A stretch of DNA of 64,000 nucleotides from Candidatus Methanomethylicaceae archaeon GD_Cm_T35_P0_bin.15 (GTDB lineage: Archaea > Thermoproteota > Methanomethylicia > Methanomethylicales > Methanomethylicaceae): contig JAULTD010000001.1 in the NCBI GenBank assembly GCA_038801785.1, positions 289,404-353,403 on the forward strand. Direction: 5' to 3'. Positions 30,030-47,670 of this stretch are shown one piece after another. The notes below the pieces were generated by a model. The model was given only the letters and a program-made list of their open reading frames with translations, ran no database searches and had not been told where the DNA came from. The translations under genes were made by a program, and so were the position numbers. Each line of letters starts with the position of its first letter. The stretch's first letter is position 1.

Positions 30030-30260
30030 TTACTTAAAAAGTTTGTCGGTCGAGCGGGCAATCCGACGGGTTAGGATGCGGCCGCCGGGATTCGAACCCG
30101 GGATCCGAAGCTTGGGAAGGAAACTCTTGGAAAGAGTTTCATCAGAAACGGCAATTTTGATGATGTTCTGCGGGGTTGTACTGTACAGGGAAGCCAGCTC
30201 CTTCAGGCGCCCGGCTACGTCTTCAGGGACGGTCAGGACCTTGTAGCCTTTCCTGGGCAT
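30030..30260 (-). CDS. integrase N-terminal fragment Int(N), reading through the left att into flanking DNA
   Basis: Codons 1-47 (30260-30120) are element-encoded (MPRKGYKVLTVPEDVAGRLKELASLYSTTPQNIIKIAVSDETLSKSF). Codon 48 starts exactly at the first att base. The att translation LPKLRIPGSNPGGRI is the same at both ends. Confidence 0.7.
   Translation of the reverse strand: MPRKGYKVLTVPEDVAGRLKELASLYSTTPQNIIKIAVSDETLSKSFLPKLRIPGSNPGGRILTRRIARSTDKLFK
30074..30119. repeat. att site, left copy (orphan 3' half of tRNA-Gly(CCC))
   Basis: ggatgcggccgccgggattcgaacccgggatccgaagcttgggaag, identical to 39816-39861. The flanking bases differ on both sides. Confidence 0.95.
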
Positions 30261-30314
30261 AAGTGCTCGGCTACCGTATGTCAGAAGAGACGGAAGAGGT
30301 TATCGGTACATAGG

Positions 30315-31493
30315 TTACATATACTTACAGAGTCCAGCAATACGCTGGTGTAGCAGTTTTTTATCCTTAATATAACCTGCAGAATCTCGATCATTAATAT
30401 ATTCCCCACTGACTGCCAGTTCTTTCTTACTAGCTGTCACTTCATGAATTTTGGATAGATAATTAATTCTTGGTAGTGCCTTAGACAACTCCTTTTCATC
30501 GTTGGTAGCGGTAAGTAAGTAATGCAGATACTCCATATCTTTACTATTATTTTCAACAGCTAAGTCATGAGCTATTTTATCAGGATCAGGACTATAATGT
30601 ACAAAATCTTTGATGCCTAGATCATCCCTATCAAAGAACATTGTGGTTATTTTTCCTATTCCACCGCGTTTTCTTTTAATAAAGATACCATTTTCAATAC
30701 AGAAGATATCGCCAAGTCGGTATTCAGAGAAGTGTGTGCAAGATAAATGATCGTCAAACTTCCTCTTTACATCCGTCATAATTATCGCAATATTTTCGTT
30801 TTTTAGTGTGTCCCAAACATAATCGTAGTTTATAGCGACCTCTTCATAAGGATGGAAAATTAGGCCAAGGAGGTTAATAGTTCCACTCGCACTCTGGTTT
30901 TTAACGAAGTCAACTATTTGCTTAAAGTGCTTCTCATCATGTTTAAGATCCAAGAAAAAGATAGGTTCCATTCCTTCCTCCAGAATATTGTCATGTATTC
31001 CTTTGAGAATATCAAGTTGCGCTAAATTACCTAGATGAGGGACTGCCAGCAAGTTACTCTCTTTATTTTGAAGCGTGGTCTCTAGACTAAAAGTCATCCT
31101 TAGAAATTTCTCGTAGGTGGTCCTGCTTATACAAGATAGCCCACTTTGACATGGTTGCACCAGTATCAGAGGTAAAGATGCGTGGATCCCTCGTTTCATA
31201 ACGTTTTCAGCGTCAGTGTAGACATCTGAATACCCTTGGTTTTCCGAAAGAAACCTAGCTGTACAATCAGAACCTAATTTGTATGGCAGGAATAGGATGT
31301 CACTATCGTTAAGCAATGGTGTAGCAATGGGCACTTTCTTCTTGGCGTTGAGTTCCGATCGTGTTATGGATCTAAAAGGCGTTTTGAAGGTAATTCCATT
31401 TATTTGGATCTCGGTGGTCCTGCAACGATAGAATAGTTCAGACTTACGGTCTTTTTCATCAACATTATTTACGTGTACTTTAACTTTACTCAT
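30315..31493 (-). CDS. 392-aa protein of unknown function (third gene of the coupled operon)
   Basis: The ATG at 31493 overlaps the upstream stop as ATGA. AT-rich codon usage. Alternating hydrophobic strand-like segments (ILFLPY, LILVQP, LLAVPHL, IFFLDLK, LLGLIF, IAIIMTDVK). I recognise no family. Confidence 0.6.
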   Translation of the reverse strand: MSKVKVHVNNVDEKDRKSELFYRCRTTEIQINGITFKTPFRSITRSELNAKKKVPIATPLLNDSDILFLPYKLGSDCTARFLSENQGYSDVYTDAENVMKRGIHASLPLILVQPCQSGLSCISRTTYEKFLRMTFSLETTLQNKESNLLAVPHLGNLAQLDILKGIHDNILEEGMEPIFFLDLKHDEKHFKQIVDFVKNQSASGTINLLGLIFHPYEEVAINYDYVWDTLKNENIAIIMTDVKRKFDDHLSCTHFSEYRLGDIFCIENGIFIKRKRGGIGKITTMFFDRDDLGIKDFVHYSPDPDKIAHDLAVENNSKDMEYLHYLLTATNDEKELSKALPRINYLSKIHEVTASKKELAVSGEYINDRDSAGYIKDKKLLHQRIAGLCKYM

Positions 31494-32050
31494 CCTCGCC
31501 CGCGTCCCCAAGTAATTCCTTTGTATTTTTTCTTGAGTTCCGATTTATCTATAAACTCTGGATAATGTTCGTAAGCATAACGGAGTATGCCATCGGTACC
31601 TAGTTCATCCCACCCCTTCCGGTACGAACGGACTTTTTCAATAACGCGCTCGGGGATTTTACATAGTCGACCCTTGGCGTAGACGCTTCCCCTTTTAGTT
31701 AGTACAAAGGACTCATTTCGGGTATTTTTCTTACCCCTGCGTTCGATATACCCTGCGAGCTCAAGGTCTTTGAGAAGCTCCGCTATCTTGAAGCTGTACA
31801 TTCCAAATCGAAATGGGACATAGTGTAGGTCTTCAAGCGAAGTATTTTCGTAGTGTTTCCGTAGTATTTCCTCGTTAAGGAGGAACACTTCTTTCATGAA
31901 TAGAGTTCTACCATAAATTGGTTTATCATACGAGTTGAGTAATAACAGCACGATCTCGCTGGCAGTTAGCTGTGGAGGAGTTATTTTATCATATGCTCTA
32001 AGTGCCTCCTCAAAAGTGTAGAGTTTCGTCTTATCTTCTATAACGTTCAT
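31490..32050 (-). CDS. YwgA-like / Panacea (DUF4065)-like wHTH protein, copy 1
   Basis: GRTLFMKEVFLLNEE...YVPFRFGMYSFKIAELLKDLELAGYIERRG parallels the KLQKxxYxxxx...FxxYGPYSxxL...L...G pattern. The ATG at 32050 overlaps the upstream stop as ATGA. Confidence 0.55.
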   Translation of the reverse strand: MNVIEDKTKLYTFEEALRAYDKITPPQLTASEIVLLLLNSYDKPIYGRTLFMKEVFLLNEEILRKHYENTSLEDLHYVPFRFGMYSFKIAELLKDLELAGYIERRGKKNTRNESFVLTKRGSVYAKGRLCKIPERVIEKVRSYRKGWDELGTDGILRYAYEHYPEFIDKSELKKKYKGITWGRGRG

Positions 32051-32529
32051 AGTCGCACCTCTACCAGATCGCCCGCCTTGAAGTTTTTGCATGCATCCGT
32101 TTTAATCCTGTAAACTTTCAGGAAATAACGCTTGCCATTATGAAGCAACCATAGGTGTAGTGGTGGATTTCTCTGGGTTATTTCTTGCTTAATGCTATCT
32201 TGTAGCGATTGAGTTGGTCTAGTTATATACTGTAACTCCGTAACGAGGTCGGTCAAAGTGATTCCAGCTATCTTCATTTGCGCTACAGTTTCCTCTGGAT
32301 ACAAAATTCCCTCGGCAAAGCAACCGGGTTCGATTACTTCGTATTTAGTCCCGCAAGCGTGGCAATTCTTTTGTGGTATGCCCTGTACCGCATAGACGCG
32401 TGGTTTGCCAAAAGACATGGTACCGATTTTAGGAAGTTGTAGAGTCCAAGGGCTGCTTATTTGTTCAAGTGTGATCGTTTCTACAGAGCCGGCCCCACAA
32501 TAAGGGCAGTAAGCGGGCAAAGATGCCAA
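32047..32529 (-). CDS. Zn-ribbon protein, unknown function (first gene of the coupled operon)
   Basis: CPYC (aa 8-11) and CHAC (aa 56-59) pairs, followed by an ~90-aa C-terminal domain with no motif I recognise. Confidence 0.5.
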   Translation of the reverse strand: MASLPAYCPYCGAGSVETITLEQISSPWTLQLPKIGTMSFGKPRVYAVQGIPQKNCHACGTKYEVIEPGCFAEGILYPEETVAQMKIAGITLTDLVTELQYITRPTQSLQDSIKQEITQRNPPLHLWLLHNGKRYFLKVYRIKTDACKNFKAGDLVEVRL

Positions 32530-32968
32530 CCGAGCGCCTCACTTGAATTATGTCTGTTAATATAATTTAGACTGTTTATAAGCTATATCAAAAATTGTAC
32601 GATACCACAAAGTATCAGAGGTTAAGAGTCTAAACTAGTTATTTATTTTTATCAGACATAGGGTAACTATAACGCTCCAATTTTGGTAGCATTTATGAGT
32701 TTTATTTTCACCCCTCCCTCCCGCCGTAACCACCTTTCCCGAGTCCTTTTACCCTCCCGCCTACTACAAAGGACGGGAAGCGCTATGCATTCACAGCCGA
32801 CCCTGGAGGATCTGGGCGAGGAGCTCTTCAACGGGAAGGTAAAGTGCCAGAAGTGCGGGAAGTGGTGCATGTCCTGGCTCGGGCTGGCCGTACGCACTTC
32901 GGCAAGCGCCACGGGAAGCGCCTGGCGGAGGCCACGTGGGAGGACCTGGGGAAGGTGGGAGGATCCTG

Positions 32969-33130
32969 ATGGGCTGGAGGGAGTGCGAGGACGTCCTGGA
33001 GCTCGCGCTGCTAAAGATGCGCAGGTGCCGATCCGCGGAGGAGTGCAGGGGAGCGGTGGCGGATATCTTGGCGCTGGTCAAGGAAAGGAAGTTCGAGAGG
33101 CTGAAGGAGGAGCTGGGGGTGATGGAGTGA
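32969..33130 (+). CDS. possible small helical protein (53 aa) inside a GC-rich patch of the element
   Basis: MGWRECEDVLELALLKMRRCRSAEECRGAVADILALVKERKFERLKEELGVME. Its ATG overlaps the TGA of an upstream reading frame (TGATG). Confidence 0.3.
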   Translation: MGWRECEDVLELALLKMRRCRSAEECRGAVADILALVKERKFERLKEELGVME

Positions 33131-33254
33131 TGATAGTATGTTGATTAGACCTTGTCATTAAAAACTAAAATTTTTTAAAGCCAAAAAGTGATAGTGTCTT
33201 TATAATAAGAATATATTTTAGAGAAGATGGGTTTAGAAATGGGTTGGAATAGAA

Positions 33255-33698
33255 ATGGTCACCGGCGACAGAAAGAAACTCCTGACATATTTAAAATATA
33301 CTGGGAGCGAATCGATAGCTACCTTAAAAGACAGAAAAATAGCACAGAAAAAAATTTACCTTTTGCAGCGAATTGGACTGGACTTGGGATACCATTTCGG
33401 TTGGTACATCTATGGTCCGTATTCGCCTCGTCTAGCCGATGATCTATACGAAGCCTTTGATGCTCAAGACACTAAAGATATGCCGCTAGAGCAGGAAGAA
33501 AAAAATTGTTTAGACAAGTTGAACTCAATCCTGTCAAAACTTCCAGAAGACCAAAAGGACTATTGGCTTGAGCTCTTGGCATCTTTAGATGTAGTGAAAA
33601 AGAAAGAGCTTCTCAAGAAACTTAAACCGAATAAGTTTAAAGATGAAGATATCATGCGCAGTGAGGCTTTGCTTGAGAGATACTTAAGGCGAACGTAG
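33255..33698 (+). CDS. YwgA-like / Panacea (DUF4065)-like wHTH protein, copy 2
   Basis: KIAQKKIYLLQRIGLDLGYHFGWYIYGPYSPRLADDLYEAF closely follows the KLQKLLY...F.W.YGPYS..L pattern. Its stop TAG is immediately followed by the ATG of the HD gene. Confidence 0.65.
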   Translation: MVTGDRKKLLTYLKYTGSESIATLKDRKIAQKKIYLLQRIGLDLGYHFGWYIYGPYSPRLADDLYEAFDAQDTKDMPLEQEEKNCLDKLNSILSKLPEDQKDYWLELLASLDVVKKKELLKKLKPNKFKDEDIMRSEALLERYLRRT

Positions 33699-35069
33699 AT
33701 GCGTCCACATGACATTTATGATTCTGTACATGGCTACATCCACATAACAGCTGAGGGGGACGACATAGTAGCCGACCCTTATTTTCAGAGACTTAGGAGG
33801 GTACACCAGCTCGGCCTTGGAAACATGGTATTTCCCAGCGCAGAGCATACGCGTTTTTCCCATTCATTAGGCGTAATGCACATAGTGACAAAGATGGTAG
33901 ACGCATTGAACAATAACGTCGGAAGCAATTCACAGCTCATTGATAAGGACGATAAAAACCTCTTACGCGTCGCAGGTCTTCTTCACGATGTAGGGCATAT
34001 GCCTTTCTCGCACTTCTTGGAAGATGTAGCCAAATCTATGGGCAGTACTATCAGGCACGAAGATTTGGCTGGAAAGATAATTAAAGAGACCGGTCTTAAA
34101 GATGAGGTAGAAAAAGCGGTCGGTAATAAGGTGGAGGAAGTAATTTCCCTCATAAACAAAACTTATGAGTTGGACCTCGATGAAGCAGAAAAAAGAGGGC
34201 AAACTAACGCTCATGTGCTGAATAGTTTAATAAGTTCCGAGCTCGACGCTGACCGCATAGACTACTTGTTGAGGGATGCTTATCACATAGGCATCCCGTA
34301 CGGCAGTTTTGACCTAAATAGGATTTTAAATACCATGATCGTTGCAAAAACGGATGACGGTTCAATGGTTCCCGCTCTTAAAAGGAAGGCGAGACTTGCT
34401 GCCGAAAATTACATTATGGCCAGGCTGCACATGTATGAGGCGGTGTATCTTCACAAAACTATAGGTGCTTTCAATTGTATCCTAAGGGAGCTTTACATCC
34501 AAGGAATTAACGAAGGGATCCTTCCAAGCTTTGAGGAAATGGAAAGCCAAATAACCGAAGATTCTTTCTTCTGTACTTTTGACGATTATTATGTCCTCTC
34601 ACAAATACTCCATCACGATTACCGTAGCGATCACCATAAAAAATTGAAAAAGATGTTCATTGAAAGGCGCCCATTAAAACTTGCATATGAAGTAAAAAAA
34701 TCGAGAGGAACCGTAAATCCTCATGATGTAACCGCAAGTTGGATCGCATTAACTGACATATCAAAAATAAAGGATGAATTTTGCAAAAAGTACGGTCTCA
34801 AACCAGAATCAATTTTCTTTGAAGAGCCAAAGTTATCCGCTCTAAAGGTAAAACTAGATACTGCGGATTATGAGGATGCAATATACATCGAAGACGGCGA
34901 AGGCCACGCGGAGCCCATCAATAAGAATAAAGAGTCTTTCGTAGAATCCCTGCTAAAATATAACATGGATGTAAAGCGCGTTTACACATTTGAAGAGAGT
35001 GTAGAAAAAGTAAAAGAGGCAATAAAAAAAGAAATTGGAAAAAAGAAGGAAGAATACGATCTAAATTAA
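33699..35069 (+). CDS. HD-domain phosphohydrolase, SAMHD1 / dGTPase-like (COG1078 type)
   Basis: RFSHSLGVMHI, GLLHDVGHMPFSH and ELDADRIDYLLRDAY correspond to the H...HD...D metal-site motifs of SAMHD1-like dNTP triphosphohydrolases. Confidence 0.8.
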   Translation: MRPHDIYDSVHGYIHITAEGDDIVADPYFQRLRRVHQLGLGNMVFPSAEHTRFSHSLGVMHIVTKMVDALNNNVGSNSQLIDKDDKNLLRVAGLLHDVGHMPFSHFLEDVAKSMGSTIRHEDLAGKIIKETGLKDEVEKAVGNKVEEVISLINKTYELDLDEAEKRGQTNAHVLNSLISSELDADRIDYLLRDAYHIGIPYGSFDLNRILNTMIVAKTDDGSMVPALKRKARLAAENYIMARLHMYEAVYLHKTIGAFNCILRELYIQGINEGILPSFEEMESQITEDSFFCTFDDYYVLSQILHHDYRSDHHKKLKKMFIERRPLKLAYEVKKSRGTVNPHDVTASWIALTDISKIKDEFCKKYGLKPESIFFEEPKLSALKVKLDTADYEDAIYIEDGEGHAEPINKNKESFVESLLKYNMDVKRVYTFEESVEKVKEAIKKEIGKKKEEYDLN

Positions 35070-35218
35070 TCCAACGCCATCGATACAACCATTACGTTGA
35101 CTTTATGATCTCTTAGTGCCATAAAAAGGTTGTAATTGCGCGGTAGAAGTCGTGAGCTAAATTAATGAAAAATTAATTATTAATAAAAGTTAAACCTATA
35201 AAATGGCAGCGACTAAAG

Positions 35219-38200
35219 ATGACGTTTGAAGAGTCTTTTAAGAAATACCTGGAGGCAGCTTCCTCTGCCGGCACGCACCAGGCAAAGATGATCGCGTTTA
35301 CAATTTTCCTTAGCGAGGTCTTCGGAAAGTCGAGCTATGAGATCATCCAGGATGTAGAGAAGTACGTCTCAACTCGGGACAAAATAAGCATGATGACCAT
35401 AAAAGGCCGAATGGACATGCACTTTGGGCAGACAATCATCGAGTTCAAACTCAATCTTTCGCGCGAGCTGGAAGCGGCAAAGGAGGAGCTGGCCAGGTAC
35501 GCAAAGATCATGCGGAGCAATCGGCAGAAGGTCGGCGAGTGCATAGTGACGGACGGCCTGATCTTCAAAGTAATGGTTGTAGGCGACGAAGCAAAAGAAG
35601 TAAGAGAGATCGACTTCCGCAAGGTGCCGCCGGAAACGGCGATCCTTTTCCTCGACACTTACCTATTCAGCGCCAGGAAGAAGCCTACCGCAGAAGACCT
35701 CGCCATGCGGTTCGGCCCCGGCTCGCCGGTCTACGAGGAAGTAGTAGGCGGACTGACCCCTCTCTTCGGCAACATGCAAATTCCCATAAAGTTCCAGCTG
35801 TGGCAGAGGAACATGCAGATAGTTTACGGGAACGCGCCCCCAGACGAGGCTTTTGTGTCCCAGACTTATCTCATGGTCCTGGTAAGGCTGCTTTTACTGA
35901 GGTATTTGACCGGAAGAGCGCCCCCATTGCTCGACGGCCTGAACGGCAAAATCTTCCAAGAACAAGGAATCCACATCATTGAGGAAGATTTCTTCTCTTG
36001 GATTTTTGATCAGAGGTGCTGGCCGCAGATCGAACCTCTCGTCAATACGATGGTCGATGCGCTCGAATGCTACGATCTCAGCGAGATCGACGAAGACGTC
36101 TTCAAAGAGATCTACCAGGAAATCATAAAGCGCGGCGAGAGGCACAGGATCGGCGAATATTATACGCCTGAGTGGTTGGCGGAACTTACTCTCAACGAGG
36201 CAATTAAAGCGATAGGCCAGGAAAAGAAGTTCACGGTGCTGGACCCCGCGTGCGGCTCAGGCACGTTCCTGACGAAGGCAGTCATCCATCTGAAGAGGAA
36301 CGGGGCTTCGCTCAAAGAAGTCTTGGAAAGCGTTTACGGGATAGATTTGAATCCGCTGGCCATAGAGATTTCGAGGACAAACTACCTCCTGGCGCTTGGC
36401 AGGCTCATTGAGAAGCGGAAAGGGCCGATTTTCATACCCGTGTTCATGGCGGATTCGATAAAGCTGCCGGATGTCCGTAGAGAGGTCATGTACGGCGAGC
36501 CCATCCTCGCCATAGACGTCGACGAGAAATTGCAGCTGAACCTCCCGTTGGAAGTAGCGCTGGATGACAACAAACTGAAAGAGGACCTGAAGCTTTTCGA
36601 GGATATCCTGAGGGAGTACAGGACGGGCAGACTGTCTAAACCGCTGGCGCTCAAGGCCTTTGAAAGCATGTGCGGGCACAGGGAGGCGCTCAAGGAAATA
36701 CTGAAGGAAACGCTGCAGAAGATAATGGATCTAATAGACGTCGACAAGGACTCGATCTGGGTCTTCATGATGCGCAATATTTACGCGCCGTTGAGGATGA
36801 AAGAGAAAAAGTTCGACTTGGTCGTCGGGAACCCTCCCTGGGTGTCGTTCAAGTTCATCGAAAATGTCGAGTACCAGAAATTTATCAAAAAGACGGTGTT
36901 CGAATATGGGCTATTGAGTCCAAAACAAACGGACCTTTTCACGCAGATTGACACATCAACTGCATTCTACACCAAGGTAGCTGACATTTATCTTAAGGAT
37001 AGCGGCATCCTGGCGTTCGTCATGCCCAAGAGCGTCCTCACAGGAGCCAAACAGCATGAGGCATTCAAGAAACAACTCCATCCACCAATGAGGGTTTTGG
37101 GAATACACGACGTGGGTGAGGTTAAACCCCTTTTCAACGTAAAGGCGTGCATAATTATTGCCCAGAAAGGGGGAGCGACTACTTTTCCAGTGCCAGCGGG
37201 CATATGGTCTGGCGAATTGTCCAAGAAAAACGCTTTACTAAAAGACGCCAAGAAGGTTCTTGAATTGAGGGAGTCAAAGTATGTTCCACCAAAAAAGAGT
37301 GATAAAACGAGCCCGTATCATGGTGAGATGCTCTCTGGTGCAGGGATTTATCCTCGGACTTTATGGTTTGTGAAATTCGTGCCAAGCAGCTTTGGGGTCA
37401 ATCTAGAAGAGCCTTTGGTAGAAAGCCTGATTTTGCCCGACGCTAAGGCGCCTTGGAAGAGCGTAATGCTGAAGGGCAGCGTTGAGAAAGATTTTGTATT
37501 TGCCACAATGACCGGAAAGGATTTGCTCCCCTTCAAGCCGCAGTTCAAGGCGGTCGTTCTTCCGATTGAAAAAGGTTCCTACAAATACAAGATTCTCACT
37601 CCGGAGGAGTTAAGGGGAAAGGGCAAGTTAAAGATGGCAAATTGGGTTGAGACAGCAAATAAATATTGGTCTTCACTGGCGACAAAGACTTCGATAGCAA
37701 ACTTTCCCACCCCAATGGATTACATGAACTACCACAATAAGCTAGAGCTGCAAAGGACGAACCTTCGTTATTACGTGGTTTATACCGCGTCCGGTACACA
37801 CATCGCGGCTGCTGTAGTGGATACAAAAAACCTACCGCCGTTCCAGGTCGACGGCGCCAAGATACGCCCCAACGGCTTCGTCGCGGATTATAAGACCTTC
37901 TGGTTCGGCACGAATAATGCAAATGAAGCATCTTACTTGGTGGCCATATTGAACTCGAATGTTATGGATGAGATGATCAAGCCGCACCAGTCAGAAGGGG
38001 CCTTTGGAGCAAGAGACATCTGCAGATTGCCCTTCGAGTTCAACATACCTGAATACGACCCAAACAACGGTATTCACACAGCGCTTGCCGTACTGGGGGC
38101 CGAAGCAGCGAAGGAAGCGGATCGCCTCCCCAGAGCGTCCAGGATGAAAATAAAGGCGAAGATTCCCCAGATGCAGATGATAGATGAACTTACCAAGAAA

Positions 38201-38272
38201 CTATTAATGCAAAATAGATCAGACGTCTTGAGGCGTCAGGAATTAACTGATAAACGATCTAACGATTGCTAA
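35219..38272 (+). CDS. MmeI-like type IIL/IIG restriction-modification enzyme (nuclease, N6-adenine methyltransferase and TRD in one chain)
   Basis: N-terminus QAKMIAFTIFLSEVFGK...GRMDMHFGQTIIEFK gives a D-x8-ExK nuclease motif, like MmeI. Methyltransferase motif I LDPACGSGTFL and motif IV VVGNPPWV. A long C-terminal target-recognition region follows. Confidence 0.75.
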   Translation: MTFEESFKKYLEAASSAGTHQAKMIAFTIFLSEVFGKSSYEIIQDVEKYVSTRDKISMMTIKGRMDMHFGQTIIEFKLNLSRELEAAKEELARYAKIMRSNRQKVGECIVTDGLIFKVMVVGDEAKEVREIDFRKVPPETAILFLDTYLFSARKKPTAEDLAMRFGPGSPVYEEVVGGLTPLFGNMQIPIKFQLWQRNMQIVYGNAPPDEAFVSQTYLMVLVRLLLLRYLTGRAPPLLDGLNGKIFQEQGIHIIEEDFFSWIFDQRCWPQIEPLVNTMVDALECYDLSEIDEDVFKEIYQEIIKRGERHRIGEYYTPEWLAELTLNEAIKAIGQEKKFTVLDPACGSGTFLTKAVIHLKRNGASLKEVLESVYGIDLNPLAIEISRTNYLLALGRLIEKRKGPIFIPVFMADSIKLPDVRREVMYGEPILAIDVDEKLQLNLPLEVALDDNKLKEDLKLFEDILREYRTGRLSKPLALKAFESMCGHREALKEILKETLQKIMDLIDVDKDSIWVFMMRNIYAPLRMKEKKFDLVVGNPPWVSFKFIENVEYQKFIKKTVFEYGLLSPKQTDLFTQIDTSTAFYTKVADIYLKDSGILAFVMPKSVLTGAKQHEAFKKQLHPPMRVLGIHDVGEVKPLFNVKACIIIAQKGGATTFPVPAGIWSGELSKKNALLKDAKKVLELRESKYVPPKKSDKTSPYHGEMLSGAGIYPRTLWFVKFVPSSFGVNLEEPLVESLILPDAKAPWKSVMLKGSVEKDFVFATMTGKDLLPFKPQFKAVVLPIEKGSYKYKILTPEELRGKGKLKMANWVETANKYWSSLATKTSIANFPTPMDYMNYHNKLELQRTNLRYYVVYTASGTHIAAAVVDTKNLPPFQVDGAKIRPNGFVADYKTFWFGTNNANEASYLVAILNSNVMDEMIKPHQSEGAFGARDICRLPFEFNIPEYDPNNGIHTALAVLGAEAAKEADRLPRASRMKIKAKIPQMQMIDELTKKLLMQNRSDVLRRQELTDKRSNDC

Positions 38273-38949
38273 AAGTTGTAGGGCCTCCCTACCTCGTATA
38301 TCTCTTTTGATATCTTTTTCAACTCTTTAAAATAGCCCTTCGGGTACTTTTTCCAATTTATTTTTCTGACCAGGTCTCTGACTTCGTCGGACACACCGCT
38401 GCCAACGTATCATTCCCTATCCTGCTGGGCTTTGGCGTGGTGGCAATAGTTCTGGGATATGCGATCGCGAATATACGCCAGAAGAAGCCGCAGCCGCCCA
38501 TAGTGGTCCAGGTGCAGTCCAAGTACCTCAGGAAGAAGGGCAGGGGACAGGCATGACCAAGCTCCTGTCCTTGGTCGCCTGCATGTGCTTCAATGGTATC
38601 CTCTCATCCAATATGTCCTCAGCTACGCTCTACCGACTAGTGCAAGCTGGAAGATGCACTTTACTGATAGATGAATCGGAGGACTTAGCTAATCCTGAGA
38701 GGCGCCAGGACTTAATCGACTGACCGGCTTTCGGGCTTACTTTTTTTTCGCCCGTTAGATTACAAAAGAGCTGTTTTGTAATGTGTTCCGGTTTCAGCCT
38801 CTGAACTCCATAAAATAGCAGAACTGGAGTACTATATAAAAATAAAATAATATGCGGGCTTTAGGGGGAAGCATCATTGCCCCCTTTCCCTGAGAGCTGA
38901 CCGAGTTACGACAACATCCTCGCCAGCGGGAACGCTTAGCAATGATACT

Positions 38950-39765
38950 TTATGTTAGAACCTTCAGCCCTGCCCGGTCGTATATTGCCTTAAGGTTTTC
39001 AGGCGAATAATCGCTGTAATGCTTGGCCAGCACAGACCGGGGGACCCTGCCCTGGAAGGCGTCGATGAACCTGTCTGCCACGCCCAGACGGGCCATCTCA
39101 TTCGAAAACCAGAACCTCAGCACTTTGGGAGTTATCTTCAGCCCGGTCTTCTTCTGGGCTATGACGAAGAGGCAGGACTTGTCGGAGCCTCTGATAGAGA
39201 AGAGGTTCTCGGACTTGTGCTTGCTTTTCATCCACGCCCCCAACAGGTCCTCGAACTCGCCGTTGTAGAACGTCATGAAGGACCTCTTGGTCCTGGTGGC
39301 ATGCTGGGGAGTGATCATCCTCAGGCCAGTGTTTACGTTAGAGACCTTCAGCCCCAGCAGCTCGGCCCTTCTCAACCCGGTGACAGCGTACCCCACGAAT
39401 GCCAGCCGCTCGTAGTCCTCATCCAGGGCAGAGTAGAACTCTGCGAGCTCTTTCCTGGAGGGCATGCTCATTATGGGCGGGTCCACCTGCTTTATCTTGA
39501 AAGGCAGCTTCACGTCCTGATACTTGGCATAGGCGATAAACGACTTCAGGTAGTTGTTGAAGGTGTTCGGGTTCTCTAACTGCGCCAGGAAGGAGCGCAT
39601 GGCGTCTATCGTGAACGGGTTTGCTGAGAGGTACTTGCGGAGGTTTCCGGTGTACTTCTGGGCGGTCTTCCGGCTTATGTCCAGGTCAGTCAGGCAGAAC
39701 TCCTGGAACTTCAGTACTGTACCAGCATCGAACCCTGTACTGTACCCGTTTCGCGGTTGTTGCAA
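38950..39765 (-). CDS. integrase C-terminal fragment Int(C), tyrosine recombinase catalytic domain
   Basis: GLRRAELLGLK (catalytic Arg region), and RVPRSVLAKHY near the C-terminus (second Arg and Tyr). The track start is a TTG. The frame stays open upstream through the att copy as far as a TAG at 39865-39867. Confidence 0.8.
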   Translation of the reverse strand: MQQPRNGYSTGFDAGTVLKFQEFCLTDLDISRKTAQKYTGNLRKYLSANPFTIDAMRSFLAQLENPNTFNNYLKSFIAYAKYQDVKLPFKIKQVDPPIMSMPSRKELAEFYSALDEDYERLAFVGYAVTGLRRAELLGLKVSNVNTGLRMITPQHATRTKRSFMTFYNGEFEDLLGAWMKSKHKSENLFSIRGSDKSCLFVIAQKKTGLKITPKVLRFWFSNEMARLGVADRFIDAFQGRVPRSVLAKHYSDYSPENLKAIYDRAGLKVLT

Positions 39766-39815
39766 AAGCGTCTTTCTTGGTAAAGCTTCTTTGACGCCGA
39801 CAAAGAAGGTTTGAT

Positions 39816-39861
39816 GGATGCGGCCGCCGGGATTCGAACCCGGGATCCGAAGCTTGGGAAG
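39816..39861. repeat. att site, right copy (within the intact tRNA-Gly)
   Basis: Identical 46-mer to 30074-30119. Confidence 0.95.
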
Positions 39862-39894
39862 CTTCTATCCTAGACCGGACTAGACCACGGCCGC
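39819..39894 (-). tRNA. tRNA-Gly (anticodon CCC), no encoded CCA
   Basis: Reverse complement: GCGGCCG acceptor stem, anticodon arm GAAGC-TTCCCAA-GCTTC, T-arm CCGGG-TTCGAAT-CCCGG, CGGCCGC, discriminator A. Confidence 0.9.
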
Positions 39895-44253: not shown

Positions 44254-45795
44254 TTAGTCAGGGTTTGCATTGCTGACACCGTCGGAAACACCTGCTTCGG
44301 GTATCTCGGACATGTTGTCCACCAGGGCCATTCTGAAGACCCTGTCCCTGTCAGCATAGTACTCCCTCAGCAGGTTCCCTATCTCGAGGTACCTTCTGAT
44401 CGACTTGTTCGCCATCCACCCCAAGATTACCTTCCTCGCAGCTATCTCGGAGCGGATCTCTTCGAGTGGGATCCCCCTCTCCTGGGCTATGCTTTTCAGG
44501 AGGGCACTCTCGGAGAGGAAGGTGTGCGCGTCATTCGCATGGTCCCACTTCACCAATGGGTTCAGGATGAGCTCGTTCTTCTCATTGTCGTACCCGGCCA
44601 CCTCGGTCACGTCGACCGTCCTCCGGGCAGACTTGTCGCCGACCTTCACCTTCCTCTGGATCATTATGATGTCGATTAGCCCCACGAGCATCTTGGGGAT
44701 GTTCATGGGCGCGCTCTCCAGCCTGTTCAGTACGCCCTGGACGTTCTCCGCGTGGATTGTTGCCTGGACGCCGTGGCCCGTCGCCAGTGCTTGGAAGAGG
44801 GTGTAGGCCTCGGCCCCCCTGATCTCGCCCACCAGTATGTAGTCAGGCCTCTGCCTCAGCGCGTTCTTGAGAAGGTCGAAGAGGGTTATGGCGCTCTCCT
44901 TCTTGCCGAACCCTGTCCTGGTTGCCATGGGGATCCAGTTGGTGTGGGGGATGTTCAGTTCGGGCGTCTCCTCTATCGAGACCACCTTCATGTCGGGCCT
45001 GATGAACATGGAGATGCAGTTGAGCATGGTCGTCTTCCCCGATGCGACCTCGCCCACGACGAGGATCGAGCTCTTGTTCTCGACGGCATACCAGAGATAG
45101 GCGGCCAGCTCAGCCGAGAGGGTCCCCATCTGGATGAGGTCGACTATGGTCATGGGGTCTGCCCTGAACCGCCGTATTGTGAAGGTGGTGCCCTTTCGGG
45201 AGATCTCGGAGCCGTAGGTGGCGTTTACCCTGCTCCCGTCGGGAAGGGAGCCGTCGAGGATGGGGTTGGCTATGGACAGGTGTTTCCCGCACCGGTAGGC
45301 CAACCTCACCACGAACCTGTTGAGCTCCTCCTCGGTATTGAAGAGGATGTTCGTGCGGATGGACTCGTACTCCCGGTGCCAGACGTATATGGGCACGCCG
45401 ACACCGTCGCATGAGATGTCCTCTATAAAGTGGTCTTTCATGAGTGGGTCGATCCTCTCAAAGCCCAGGGAGTCGCGCTTTATGTAGAAGAGGAGTTTGT
45501 TCAGGAGCCCCTCGTCTGCCTTTATCCGGTAGTCCTTGATTATCCTGCGCACCTCGTTCTCGACGATGGCGGAGGCGTTCCCCCCGTCGAGCTCCTTCAC
45601 GTCTATGTCGATCTCGTCGAGGAAGATCTTCTTGATCTTCTTCAGGAGGGCCTCGTCTTCGGGGGTGAGGGTCGGCATGATGAGCTTGTAGAGGTTCTCC
45701 TTCGTGGCAGGGTCCTCCAGAATCGCCACGTAGACGTAGGGTTCCTCGATGGGGTAGGTGGACCTGAAGCCACTAGAGTCCTGCGCACTCATCAC
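44254..45795 (-). CDS. type II/IV secretion system ATPase (FlaI/TadA/GspE family)
   Basis: Walker A VGEVASGKTT, SIEETPEL, Walker B/Asp box PDYILVGEIRGAEA, His box ATIHA. Confidence 0.9.
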   Translation of the reverse strand: MMSAQDSSGFRSTYPIEEPYVYVAILEDPATKENLYKLIMPTLTPEDEALLKKIKKIFLDEIDIDVKELDGGNASAIVENEVRRIIKDYRIKADEGLLNKLLFYIKRDSLGFERIDPLMKDHFIEDISCDGVGVPIYVWHREYESIRTNILFNTEEELNRFVVRLAYRCGKHLSIANPILDGSLPDGSRVNATYGSEISRKGTTFTIRRFRADPMTIVDLIQMGTLSAELAAYLWYAVENKSSILVVGEVASGKTTMLNCISMFIRPDMKVVSIEETPELNIPHTNWIPMATRTGFGKKESAITLFDLLKNALRQRPDYILVGEIRGAEAYTLFQALATGHGVQATIHAENVQGVLNRLESAPMNIPKMLVGLIDIIMIQRKVKVGDKSARRTVDVTEVAGYDNEKNELILNPLVKWDHANDAHTFLSESALLKSIAQERGIPLEEIRSEIAARKVILGWMANKSIRRYLEIGNLLREYYADRDRVFRMALVDNMSEIPEAGVSDGVSNANPD

Positions 45796-46018
45796 TGCCT
45801 ATTCTCCTTCCTCGCTATATGTCGGCACACCCTTTATTTTGCTTGTGATACCATTATTCGCCAGAGCGGCAAGGGTAATCCAGCGCAGGGTCTTCCATTA
45901 CCGACATCCAAGACGGGCGCGGGCTTGCAAGGTGCGGAGAGTGTGTTTACTGGCTTGGCAGACGGTTCAGGCAGTGCGGAGAGCGGCAACTAAGCGGTGA
46001 TCTGTTTTCTCAACAGAT

Positions 46019-46293
46019 AAAAACATTTTGTATATTTTTATCCAAAGCGTTTTAAGCAACGTTTATATACACATTTCATCCGCTAAATAGCGGTTGATGG
46101 TAGACTATGCTGACGATCAAGAGCAAGTGTAGAACAGACAAAGGAGTCTCGCCGATAATAGCGACGCTGTTATTGATAGTCATAGCTGTGGCAGCGGCAG
46201 TTGTCACTTATACGTTCGTAATGGGGTTCGTGGGCACCAGCAGCCAGAATACAGGGCCGTCGGGGCAGCTCACCTATGACACCTACTCTGTGA
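46019..46293. repeat. duplicated pilin promoter plus 5' coding block, copy A
   Basis: Aligns by eye with 52820-53095 with one 1-nt indel and a handful of substitutions. Confidence 0.9.
46062..46069 (+). promoter_or_regulatory. putative TATA box of pilin gene A
   Basis: tttatata lies 38-45 nt upstream of the ATG at 46107. The identical element is found before pilin gene B. Confidence 0.45.
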
Positions 46294-46592
46294 CAGGTGA
46301 TGCGACCAACTCTAATTTCACAGTCTATGTAAGAAATACGGGTGGAAAATCGGTCACGCTTAGTACGGTATATGTTGATGGTGTTTCATACACCTATGCC
46401 ACTGGAAATACTAGTGTACCGCAGACTGCATACTCTTGGGCTTTCACAGTTAGCGGGGCAACACAGGTTTTAGATGTTGCTCAAGTCGGCACATTATATG
46501 TAAACAGTAGCGGACTGAACCCCGCTCAGTGGCATACAGTGAAGATCGTATGCATCGACGGGACTGCCTTGGAGTTCAGCGTAAAGAAGTAA
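46107..46592 (+). CDS. archaeal type IV pilin (class III signal peptide), paralog A
   Basis: MLTIKSKCRTDKG|VSPIIATLLLIVIAVAAAVVTYTFV: a basic leader, then KG|VS, then a hydrophobic helix. Confidence 0.8.
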   Translation: MLTIKSKCRTDKGVSPIIATLLLIVIAVAAAVVTYTFVMGFVGTSSQNTGPSGQLTYDTYSVTGDATNSNFTVYVRNTGGKSVTLSTVYVDGVSYTYATGNTSVPQTAYSWAFTVSGATQVLDVAQVGTLYVNSSGLNPAQWHTVKIVCIDGTALEFSVKK

Positions 46593-46617
46593 CTTTTTGA
46601 TCTTTTTCTTCCCCTTT
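46515..46617. repeat. duplicated pilin 3' coding block plus terminator, copy A
   Basis: Identical by eye to 53269-53371. Confidence 0.9.
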
Positions 46618-46640
46618 TTCTTATCTTATTTCTATGTTTT
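46593..46640 (+). terminator. T-rich putative archaeal terminator after pilin A
   Basis: Runs ctttttga tctttttctt cccctttttc directly after the TAA. Confidence 0.4.
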
Positions 46641-46752
46641 AGCATGAATGCCTTCGCAGAATTAAATAAATACCAGCATGAGAGGTTCCGAAATCGTCCC
46701 CGCCACGGGAGGATTGATGACCCTTAGGAGCATACAGGAAAAGAGCCGCGTG

Positions 46753-47670
46753 TCAGGTCCCTTTAATCAGGCTGACAAAGTCGCAGTTGACAAAGTTCAT
46801 GGTCAGGAAGGGCTCTCCAGTCCATCTGCTGTATAGTACGGTCACGGTGTAGACCGCCCCGGGAGAGCATTGGAATTCCACATAACCTGAAGCCGCGGTG
46901 CTCCATCCAGAATCTATGCCCAGCTCGTGCACTATGATCCGGCAGTCCTCGTTCACGTAGTAGTTCAGGTAGACGGTTGAGTTGAGCGTCACTACCCGTG
47001 TGGTTGCATTGAACCCCACCTTTGTGTAGGGGCCGAATATCGGATCGTTCGATGCCGCCCCCCACGTGAAGGTCAGGCTGGCGGTCTCCCAGTAGCTCTC
47101 CCCCAATTTAGTATCGAATACCTTCCGTTCCGAGAGGTTGTACCACTGGACGTACCACCTCCCCGCCTCCATTATGTCTATCACAGACAGCCCCGTCCCC
47201 CCGACTCCGCCGCCCTCGCCCTCGCTTGCCTGTGTACCGGAGAAGAGGTTGCCCCTGCTCGTGACCACCTTCGACGCCGTCATACTTACGTAAGGTATGG
47301 TCGTGTTTATGGAGACCCTCATCTTGGCGGGCACCGCCCATTCGCCGGTCTGGACGGTGTGGTTCGACCATATCTGCGTAATGACGATCGTCCTGGGCGT
47401 CGGGTTGCTGGCCTCCACCAGGAGCATACCTGAGGAGTTCATAAAGCTCAGCTTCAGCTCTTCCATCATCCGCAGGTTTTGGAACTCTTGATCCTCCCTC
47501 ACAGTGTCGATATAGTTGGCATAGCTCTGCGCCCAAGCAAGCATCGCAGTCATCGCGACGGTGAATATTAGTAAGAAGATCATCGCGCCTATCACAGTGC
47601 TTACCCCTCGGCGCCGGCGACTGATCGGCAAACGCAGAGGCTCAGAGCCTGACCATCTCTTCATAAACAT
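46753..47670 (-). CDS. pilin-like protein with class III signal peptide (305 aa)
   Basis: ISRRRRG|VSTVIGAMIFLLIFTVAMTAML N-terminus. Confidence 0.65.
   Translation of the reverse strand: MFMKRWSGSEPLRLPISRRRRGVSTVIGAMIFLLIFTVAMTAMLAWAQSYANYIDTVREDQEFQNLRMMEELKLSFMNSSGMLLVEASNPTPRTIVITQIWSNHTVQTGEWAVPAKMRVSINTTIPYVSMTASKVVTSRGNLFSGTQASEGEGGGVGGTGLSVIDIMEAGRWYVQWYNLSERKVFDTKLGESYWETASLTFTWGAASNDPIFGPYTKVGFNATTRVVTLNSTVYLNYYVNEDCRIIVHELGIDSGWSTAASGYVEFQCSPGAVYTVTVLYSRWTGEPFLTMNFVNCDFVSLIKGT

Follow-up and report, generated by a model that had tools for sequence, protein, structure and literature searches.

This report concerns a 2.2-kb cassette of three genes (g1, g2 and g3) on the minus strand of a 64,000-nucleotide (nt) stretch of DNA (the window: contig JAULTD010000001.1, positions 289,404 to 353,403) from Candidatus Methanomethylicaceae archaeon GD_Cm_T35_P0_bin.15. 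The cassette represents a branch of a known superfamily that is new and uncharacterised, and its gene neighbourhood has a new architecture. Judged by its predicted fold and its sequence motifs, the g3 protein is a genuine, very divergent member of the tRNA-guanine transglycosylase (TGT) superfamily, and its zinc cluster appears to have been lost in the branch to which the window belongs. The canonical nucleophilic aspartate is replaced, and g3 is regularly preceded by g2, a small gene for a predicted winged-helix protein.

The genes were taken from an open reading frame (ORF) listing and were read directly on the minus strand. The features of the cassette are as follows (aa, amino acids):

32047-32529, minus strand: g1, 160 aa, TTG start at 32529
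31490-32050, minus strand: g2, 186 aa from the ATG at 32050
30315-31493, minus strand: g3, 392 aa from the ATG at 31493
32530-32625, minus strand: putative promoter/leader, with TATA-like A/T-rich boxes (TTATAAA, AAATTATATTA) and GTGAGG 6 nt 5' of the TTG start

As a preliminary description of this DNA had stated, the three genes are chained by ATGA overlaps: each ATGA combines the start of one gene with the stop of the gene before it, g2 with g1 at 32050-32047 and g3 with g2 at 31493-31490. The same 4-nt overlap was seen in the window and in three other loci (L001, L006 and L226). The chosen starts of the 186-aa and 392-aa proteins fit, because homologue lengths agree (g2/g3 of 186/389 aa in L003 and 186/402 aa in L005). 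The full cassette was found again in sediment metagenomes (L001-L003), with protein identities of 56% for g1, 69% for g2 and 64% for g3; the L003 homologue of g1 (56% identical) likewise has a TTG start. Ratios of nonsynonymous to synonymous substitution (dN/dS, Nei-Gojobori) were 0.125 for g1, 0.10 for g2 and 0.10 for g3, with dS saturated at ~2. All three genes are under purifying selection, and the three ORFs are real genes rather than chance ORFs. Direct family scans with Pfam, NCBIfam, PADLOC and PHROGs gave no match for g1 or g3; a word-indexed homologue search returned itself and one homologue for g3, and only itself for g1. Two copies of a 17-nt direct repeat (AGTATCAGAGGT(A/T)AAGA, 16/17 identical) were observed, inside g3 (31162-31178) and ~85 nt upstream of the g1 start (32611-32627); they could be a chance occurrence or an operator-like site.

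Relatives of g3 were collected with HMMER from 1.84 billion cluster representatives: 118 representatives passed E<=1e-3, of which 67 also passed E<=1e-10, and with few exceptions they were full-length (~380-420 aa). Column statistics given below refer to 92 aligned members, and the count of zinc motifs to 121 relatives. An AlphaFold2 model of g3 was built from the 92-sequence alignment (pLDDT 94.4, pTM 0.93). It predicts a three-stranded sheet at the N-terminus, then eight beta/alpha repeats and a beta-hairpin, and a helical bundle at the C-terminus. When the model was compared with the Protein Data Bank (PDB) using Foldseek, the best nine matches were all TGT/QTRT1 structures (E=3.7e-7 to 7.7e-5, probability 1.00, TM-score 0.45-0.60), and the next fold was tryptophan synthase alpha (TrpA, 6e-4). 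A fold search in BFVD gave weak matches, mostly to unnamed proteins.

Sequence motifs agree with this fold at both ends of the protein. With hhalign, the family motif R..R...I...G..TP (g3 positions 23-40) was placed on E. coli Tgt 11-28 (also 22-57 on 11-46); within this N-terminal TGT-type motif, T38 is found in 86% and P39 in 100% of members. The SKVHE helix of the family was aligned by hhalign on the Tgt helix that bears the zinc-ligand His, and the TGT hidden Markov model (HMM) aligns two members (P0072 and P0112) across CDCxxC...H. The full zinc motif, CxCxxC(~30)H, is retained at the homologous place in 7 of the 121 relatives, which indicates that it is ancestral and was lost in the branch of the window: the zinc cysteines are absent from the window g3, and its H350 (85% conserved) aligns with the ligand His. 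The sub-alignment of zinc-keeping members gave a full-length hhalign alignment with Tgt (E=2e-4, low confidence), and the Pfam TGT model (PF01702) matched one of the 92 relatives (6.2e-5). The window g3 itself had no match to PF01702 at E<=1. Global hhalign of the g3 family against an alignment of seven bacterial TGT sequences was unsuccessful, and in local mode only the N- and C-terminal motifs were aligned. PDB sequence searches with the g3 profiles and the g1 profile found nothing meaningful. A TGT-like N-terminal hairpin had been put forward for this protein as a weak suggestion; it was upheld by the AlphaFold2, Foldseek and hhalign comparisons, according to which g3 is predicted to be a TGT-superfamily barrel.

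The predicted active site is remodelled. Three active-site aspartates are reported to be invariant in TGT and DpdA, and their mutation abolishes base exchange (PMC10164549). The reference residues were the nucleophile (Z. mobilis D280, DpdA D256, Cap10 D248), the general acid/base of the TDSGG motif (D102/D95) and the base-recognition residue of the DEC motif (D156/D130). At strand 8, TGT GIDMFDCV aligns with GID(T/S)FS(I/V) of the family, and the window protein reads LGDIFCI. The nucleophile column of the 92 members contains Ser (38), Ala (25), Cys (6), Val (6), Gly (6), Leu (5) and Thr (4) and never Asp; the window g3 has Cys at this position, the equivalent of Z. mobilis D280. From the same alignment, the near-invariant D262 matches the first, non-catalytic Asp of TGT. 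The TDSGG general-acid motif was not recognisable in g3. The other two TGT aspartates could be mapped by strand order only, to Q113-P114 and P152, in a mid-barrel alignment of low confidence.

Another set of residues is strongly conserved in the family: P39 (100%), R41 (98%), P152 (95%), R244 (92%), H254 (99%), D262 (98%), E351 (93%), E358 (100%) and Y374 (99%) are near-invariant, and T38, K51, Q113-P114, D182 (80%, strand 5), S251, H350, S355 and K378 are further conserved positions. Every one of these residues is retained by the window g3. In the model most of them are at the predicted C-terminal ends of the strands of the barrel, or else in the helical domain that follows it. The C-terminal strand ends are the active-site location of TIM barrels, and the C-terminal domain is the location of the substrate-binding subdomain of TGT. 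By these sequence features, g3 is probably not a canonical transglycosylase. A PD-(D/E)xK nuclease site, which the preliminary description had proposed from the segments IFFLDLK and IAIIMTDVK, was tried as a candidate and rejected: the two segments are predicted barrel strands 5 and 7, K184 (25/92), D241 (37/92) and K243 (10/92) are poorly kept, D182 is kept in 80%, and the predicted fold is a TIM barrel.

The linkage of g3 to its neighbours was surveyed by scanning metagenome contigs with a back-translated motif (HE-x3-S-x2-EF-x6-I-x7-Y-x3-K). The scan gave 120 loci, 79 of which contained the family gene, and 69 of the surveyed loci were non-redundant. A g2 homologue was found just upstream of g3 on the same strand, usually overlapping it, in 52 of the 55 loci with at least 600 nt of upstream sequence; by gene calls, g2 is upstream in at least 44 of 52 non-redundant loci. 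A gene of ~180-200 aa stands between g2 and g3 in four loci (L146, L181, L190 and L201). The proposal that the genes form a joint cassette is borne out by these counts and by the copies in L001-L003.

The g2 protein carries the motif K..FLL ... Y(G)PYS ... GILRYVY. The window g2 matched the PADLOC model PDC-M19A (6.4e-9) over the N-terminal ~130 of 294 profile positions, and this model was also matched by g2 homologues (1.8e-7 and 1e-4). The window g2 further matched phrog_24871 (4.5e-17) and, in a type I S-subunit model, the C-terminal extension (5e-6). Among 45 relatives of g2, DUF4364 was matched by 13 and SocA_Panacea by one (5e-5), and a PDB profile search with the g2 family found MarR-type winged helix-turn-helix (wHTH) proteins. 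The window g2 was below every Pfam threshold, including that of SocA_Panacea (PF13274). From these profile matches, g2 is a predicted winged-helix protein that resembles DUF4364 and, weakly, Panacea. Its earlier label of 'YwgA/Panacea' is kept in part: the matches to PDC-M19A, to DUF4364 (13/45) and to SocA_Panacea (1/45) agree with it in a weak form, and no Pfam threshold is passed by the window protein itself. The g2 family is also related to the small partner gene of an HD-domain gene on the same element, as had been described: hhalign aligned the two over 75 columns (E=3e-4), with K..(F/Y)LL...Y(G)PYS in common. A match to a DarG segment belongs to this HD partner gene and not to g2.

The g1 protein has a zinc ribbon formed by C8-x2-C11 (CPYC 8-11) and C56-x2-C59 (CHAC 56-59), followed by a C-terminal alpha/beta domain; C8, C11 and C56 are invariant in seven g1 homologues. 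A single-sequence AlphaFold2 model of g1 was unusable (pLDDT 35). As a separate gene upstream of g2, g1 was found in 26 cassettes, about half (by HMM or as a CxxC...CxxC homologue). In six loci (L101, L183, L122, L204, L215 and L189) g2 carries the zinc ribbon as an N-terminal fusion, a Rosetta-stone pattern which suggests that g1 and g2 act together. In six cassettes g1 is replaced as first gene by a DUF4258-like (RelE/ParE-clan) protein of ~95 aa: L118 (3251-3538), L138 (1828-2118), L189, L200, L215 and L217. When these small proteins were compared with the C-terminal domain of g1 (MAFFT, hhalign), 57 columns were aligned with a weak score (E=0.005, probability 7%), and Pfam DUF4258 was matched by 1 of 31 sequences. 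It was considered whether g1 provides in trans the zinc domain lost by g3, and this was set aside: L101 has both a zinc-keeping g3 and a ribbon-g2 fusion, which argues against simple compensation.

The family is rare and its hosts are mostly unassigned. A pattern scan based on a two-sequence alignment found no g3 relative in 185,579 species-representative genomes or in viral contigs, and tblastn of g3 gave no match in phage and plasmid collections. Two hosts of the cassette were archaeal, and the others were unassigned metagenomic contigs; the GC content of family loci ranged from 27 to 66%. The host of the window is one of the two; its DEAD-box helicase has 66% identity to that of an uncultured Nitrososphaerota MAG, the closest species representative. 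One of the copies is in a cultivated methanogen, Methanothermococcus okinawensis IH1 (L226, 8945-11200; CP002792.1, around 317-319 kb). This cassette encodes 171, 183 and 347 aa and belongs to a tailed provirus, in which it separates the structural genes from the MCM/integrase module. The g3 of this copy stops prematurely, and after an A-rich run the conserved C-terminal SKFHEF...EF...YI...DKK is read on in a different frame, which points to a frameshift pseudogene or to an error in sequencing.

Genes of restriction-modification (RM) systems are frequent beside the cassette. A type IIG enzyme immediately precedes it, in the same orientation, in L010 and L012, as does a type II methyltransferase in L009. 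In L179 the second gene upstream encodes a type ISP enzyme; type I systems are direct neighbours in L141 and L192, and type IIG enzymes are present in L106 and L137. Among 126 further neighbours the commonest were IS240, rve and IS66 transposases, DNA methylases (8) and type I S subunits (3); ResIII helicases, Mrr and EcoRV nucleases and dCTP-deaminase-like proteins were also common. Other neighbours across the loci were SMC/AAA_23 proteins, a STAND-TPR protein and integrases. No RM gene was found within four genes in many cassettes, for example L002, L112, L128 and the provirus L226. Such a neighbourhood pattern is characteristic of accessory conflict genes carried by mobile elements.

Two observations were made in passing on these contigs. 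The gene directly 3' of the zinc-keeping g3 homologue in L100 (1323-1478) begins like an HNH nuclease (...YGNHDSDHGWEIH) and is cut by the end of the contig. In L002 (1287-2943, minus strand), a DUF8098 protein is encoded divergently to the closest homologous cassette; its N-terminal KLQK..F....YGGY motif resembles g2/Panacea, and it is followed by a DUF8169 protein, so that the two may be another partner-enzyme pair.

In the window, the cassette occupies the left end of an island (30074-39861) that is a 9.7-kb element integrated at tRNA-Gly(CCC). The preliminary description had placed the cassette on a mobile element beside an RM enzyme and an HD module, and this setting was recovered: the island is flanked by a 46-nt direct repeat in 100% identical copies (30074-30119 and 39816-39861), its GC content is 38-48% against ~60% in the flanks, and it carries an integrase and a match to a type IIG enzyme. 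Besides the cassette, the element has four genes. The attachment sites and these genes are as follows:

30074-30119: attL, left copy of the 46-nt direct repeat
33255-33698, plus strand: small YwgA-like/g2-like protein, 147 aa (DarG segment and PDC-M19A matches, PADLOC)
33699-35069, plus strand: HD-domain dGTPase-like protein, 456 aa (HD 8.6e-15, HD_assoc_2 5e-7, PADLOC dGTPase 7.5e-10)
35219-38272, plus strand: type IIG restriction-modification enzyme, 1017 aa (PADLOC REase_MTase_IIG 8.3e-90; Pfam N6_Mtase, Eco57I, MmeI_Mtase)
38950-39765, minus strand: tyrosine integrase of archaeal phage integrase type, intact (PF16795 1.8e-7, PF00589 1.1e-5)
39816-39861: attR, right copy of the repeat, within tRNA-Gly(CCC) (39819-39894, minus strand)

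The YwgA-like gene (33255-33698) abuts the HD gene and forms with it a second pair of small wHTH-like partner and enzyme on the element. This pair is reminiscent of ywfO-ywgA of B. subtilis and of anti-phage dGTPases. The cargo consists of defence-type genes only (the cassette, the HD pair and the type IIG enzyme), and no replication genes were seen on the element. Near attL, a 76-aa ORF (30030-30260, minus strand; MPRKGYKVLTVPEDVAGRLKELA...) that looks like a ribbon-helix-helix protein begins within the element and runs through attL into the tRNA-derived repeat. Because it crosses attL, its C-terminus would differ between the integrated and the excised form; it could be a regulator or an excisionase. 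The divergent intergenic region between the cassette and the HD pair (32630-33250, 0.6 kb) contains G-rich stretches and doubtful ORFs only (e.g. 32683-33144, plus strand), and no Rfam match was found in it. A second dip in GC content (45500-47500, 0.47-0.51 against ~0.58) lies ~6 kb past the island and is possibly another foreign insert.

Taken together, these results lead us to favour, tentatively, the reading that the cassette is a self-contained three-protein conflict module, of defence or addiction type, which is carried by archaeal integrative elements and proviruses and has a TGT-derived effector. The effector would be g3, a protein of TGT-superfamily descent whose active site has been rebuilt, with loss of the Asp and, in this branch, of the zinc cluster. 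Arg, His, Asp, Glu and Tyr residues that form a new near-invariant set are predicted to line the barrel on its C-terminal face as well as the C-terminal helical domain. The protein most likely still binds a nucleic-acid base or a nucleotide (in tRNA or DNA), and may act by hydrolytic cleavage or excision, or by sequestration. As a probable stoichiometric partner of g3, g2 would be antitoxin-like and either keep g3 inactive or target it, and g1 probably acts via g2 as a sensing or nucleic-acid-binding extension. It is also conceivable, although rather unlikely, that g3 is a new catalytic class in the TGT fold, working through R41/H254/D262/E351/E358/Y374 (e.g. by hydrolytic base excision from tRNA or DNA, or by cleavage or capture of a nucleotide signal), and that it makes up, with the Panacea-like g2 and with g1, an unrecognised and mainly archaeal anti-virus system on integrative elements and proviruses.

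Several points weigh against a conflict module of this kind. The nucleophilic Asp that is needed by all characterised TGT, DpdA and Cap10 enzymes is missing from g3, which could be non-catalytic like QTRT2. The profile of the zinc-keeping members finds no PDB sequence at E<=1, so the homology of g3 with TGT rests on fold and motifs. Assignment of g2 as a Panacea-type antitoxin depends on weak hits, and no PADLOC model matches g1 or g3. No g2 was seen at L212, and possibly also at L198, L202 and L203. Finally, the defence-island context is suggestive and not proof, and the neighbour counts are raw, without background correction.

In an alternative reading, the cassette is an accessory of RM systems: g3 would be a DpdA-like enzyme of DNA base exchange or excision, targeted to the DNA by g1 and g2. 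Such an enzyme might add a second self-mark (e.g. with host preQ0, which archaea make for archaeosine) or carry out a glycosylase-type restriction beside the adjacent methyltransferase. RM adjacency (L010, L012, L009, L179, L141, L192, L106, L137 and the window), the 8 DNA methylases and 3 S subunits among the 126 neighbours, the match of the g2 domain to the C-terminal extension of a type I S subunit and the precedent of DpdA (PMC10164549) all point this way. We nevertheless consider it improbable: the TGT/DpdA aspartates are not recognisably kept in g3 and the nucleophile column is never Asp, no DpdB, DpdC, QueC, QueD or QueE was found on the island or in the 25 listed neighbour families, and many cassettes have no RM gene nearby (L002, L112, L128, L226). 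RM systems are the commonest genes in any defence island, and their presence may be mere co-location.

Loss of the catalytic Asp would be accounted for if g3 were a non-catalytic TGT-fold sensor or scaffold whose ligand is a nucleobase, a nucleic acid with modifications or a viral protein; toxicity would then have another source, such as the C-terminal domain of g1, possibly related to small DUF4258 toxins. QTRT2 is a non-catalytic TGT-fold protein, the pocket of Cap10 binds a protein N-terminus, and the DUF4258-like protein that is the first gene of six variant cassettes was placed on the C-terminal domain of g1 (E=0.005). That placement is weak, however (probability 7%; Pfam 1/31), and in g3 the charged residues that are nearly invariant are at the predicted C-terminal ends of barrel strands, as in TIM-barrel active sites; g3 is moreover the largest and most conserved component and, besides g2, the only universal one. 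This explanation is judged unlikely. We regard as very unlikely that the cassette is a regulatory or metabolic module without a role in conflict, composed of two DNA-binding regulators and a TIM barrel for base or nucleoside salvage, that hitch-hikes on mobile elements. It would fit the likeness of g2 to MarR-type wHTH proteins and of g1 to a zinc-ribbon DNA binder, the failure of known defence models to match g1 and g3, and the fact that most TIM barrels are metabolic enzymes; it is opposed by the rarity and patchiness of the family (118 clusters in 1.84 billion), by its GC range of 27-66% and by its neighbours, which are dominated by transposases and RM genes and include no metabolic partner that is conserved; this combination is typical of accessory conflict genes.

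If the cassette is a conflict module with a TGT-derived effector, it would add a third branch to the TGT-fold proteins that have recently emerged as building blocks of immunity, in which DpdA marks DNA and Cap10 handles a deazaguanine-protein conjugate. Replacement of the canonical Asp by a new conserved site could reveal a new chemistry of nucleic acids or nucleobases. The theme of a small Panacea/YwgA-like partner with an enzyme would be widened to a new enzyme fold, with two such pairs side by side on one element. A copy is present in the provirus of a cultivated methanogen, and the small size of 2.2 kb makes the hypothesis directly testable.

Compared with known systems, the cassette was found to share the fold of the TGT superfamily and its N-terminal motif; defining features of the canonical transglycosylases, the Dpd system and type IV CBASS are lacking, and the Panacea antitoxins are matched weakly. 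With TGT/QTRT1 (PF01702), the best structural match, the predicted g3 shares a (beta/alpha)8 barrel of ~380 aa with an N-terminal three-stranded sheet, G..TP before strand 1, G(I/L)D at strand 8, a post-barrel hairpin and a C-terminal helical subdomain. It differs in its ~10% identity, in the absence of the zinc cysteines and in the change of the nucleophilic Asp to Cys (Ser/Ala in relatives); its gene is found on mobile elements after a wHTH gene, and not with queuosine-pathway genes. QTRT2 is comparable as a eukaryotic TGT-fold paralogue that has lost catalysis and is conserved as a partner subunit. However, QTRT2 is found by a sequence search with E. coli Tgt (E ~5e-24) and pairs with the catalytic QTRT1, whereas no catalytic TGT is encoded beside g3.

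TGT homologues in defence include DpdA (PMC10164549), Cap10 (bioRxiv 10.1101/2025.04.06.647259) and the BRC systems (PMC12839542). Like g3, DpdA is a TGT-superfamily protein of a conflict system that is often near restriction genes; it retains each of the three active-site aspartates and depends on DpdB, DpdC and the preQ0 synthesis genes (PMC10164549). None of dpdB (ParB-like ATPase), dpdC (DUF328), QueC, QueD and QueE was found on the island of the window or among the 25 neighbour families listed for the 126 neighbours, and the DpdA structure 7ui4 was absent among the 50 Foldseek matches listed for g3. Cap10, of the type IV cyclic-oligonucleotide-based anti-phage signalling system (CBASS, deazaguanylation), resembles g3 in its TGT fold, its lost zinc site, its remodelled nucleic-acid-binding surfaces and its tight complex with a partner protein. 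It differs in keeping the nucleophile D248 and the base-reading Asp/Ser, and it is linked to a CD-NTase and the QueC-like Cap9, both of which were absent from the island of the window and from the neighbour surveys.

On the side of the small partner, the Panacea (PanA/SocA) pairs and DarTG have, like the cassette, a small gene upstream of an enzyme gene and overlapping it. The likeness to Panacea extends to the weak family match (1/45 g2 relatives) and to the small protein of the same kind that pairs with the HD enzyme on the element; it stops at the window g2 being below the Pfam threshold, at DUF4364 being commoner and at a third component that is a zinc ribbon. In the one literature search on Panacea antitoxins with transglycosylases, no linked TGT-barrel toxin was found, and literature on YwgA and DUF4364 gave nothing relevant. 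For PADLOC PDC-M19, agreement is confined to the match of g2 to PDC-M19A over the first ~130 of 294 positions, and g1 and g3 match no PADLOC model. The gene arrangement of the cassette fits that of a type II toxin-antitoxin system (4-nt overlaps, g2 upstream), in which g3 would be the toxin and would be neutralised by g2.

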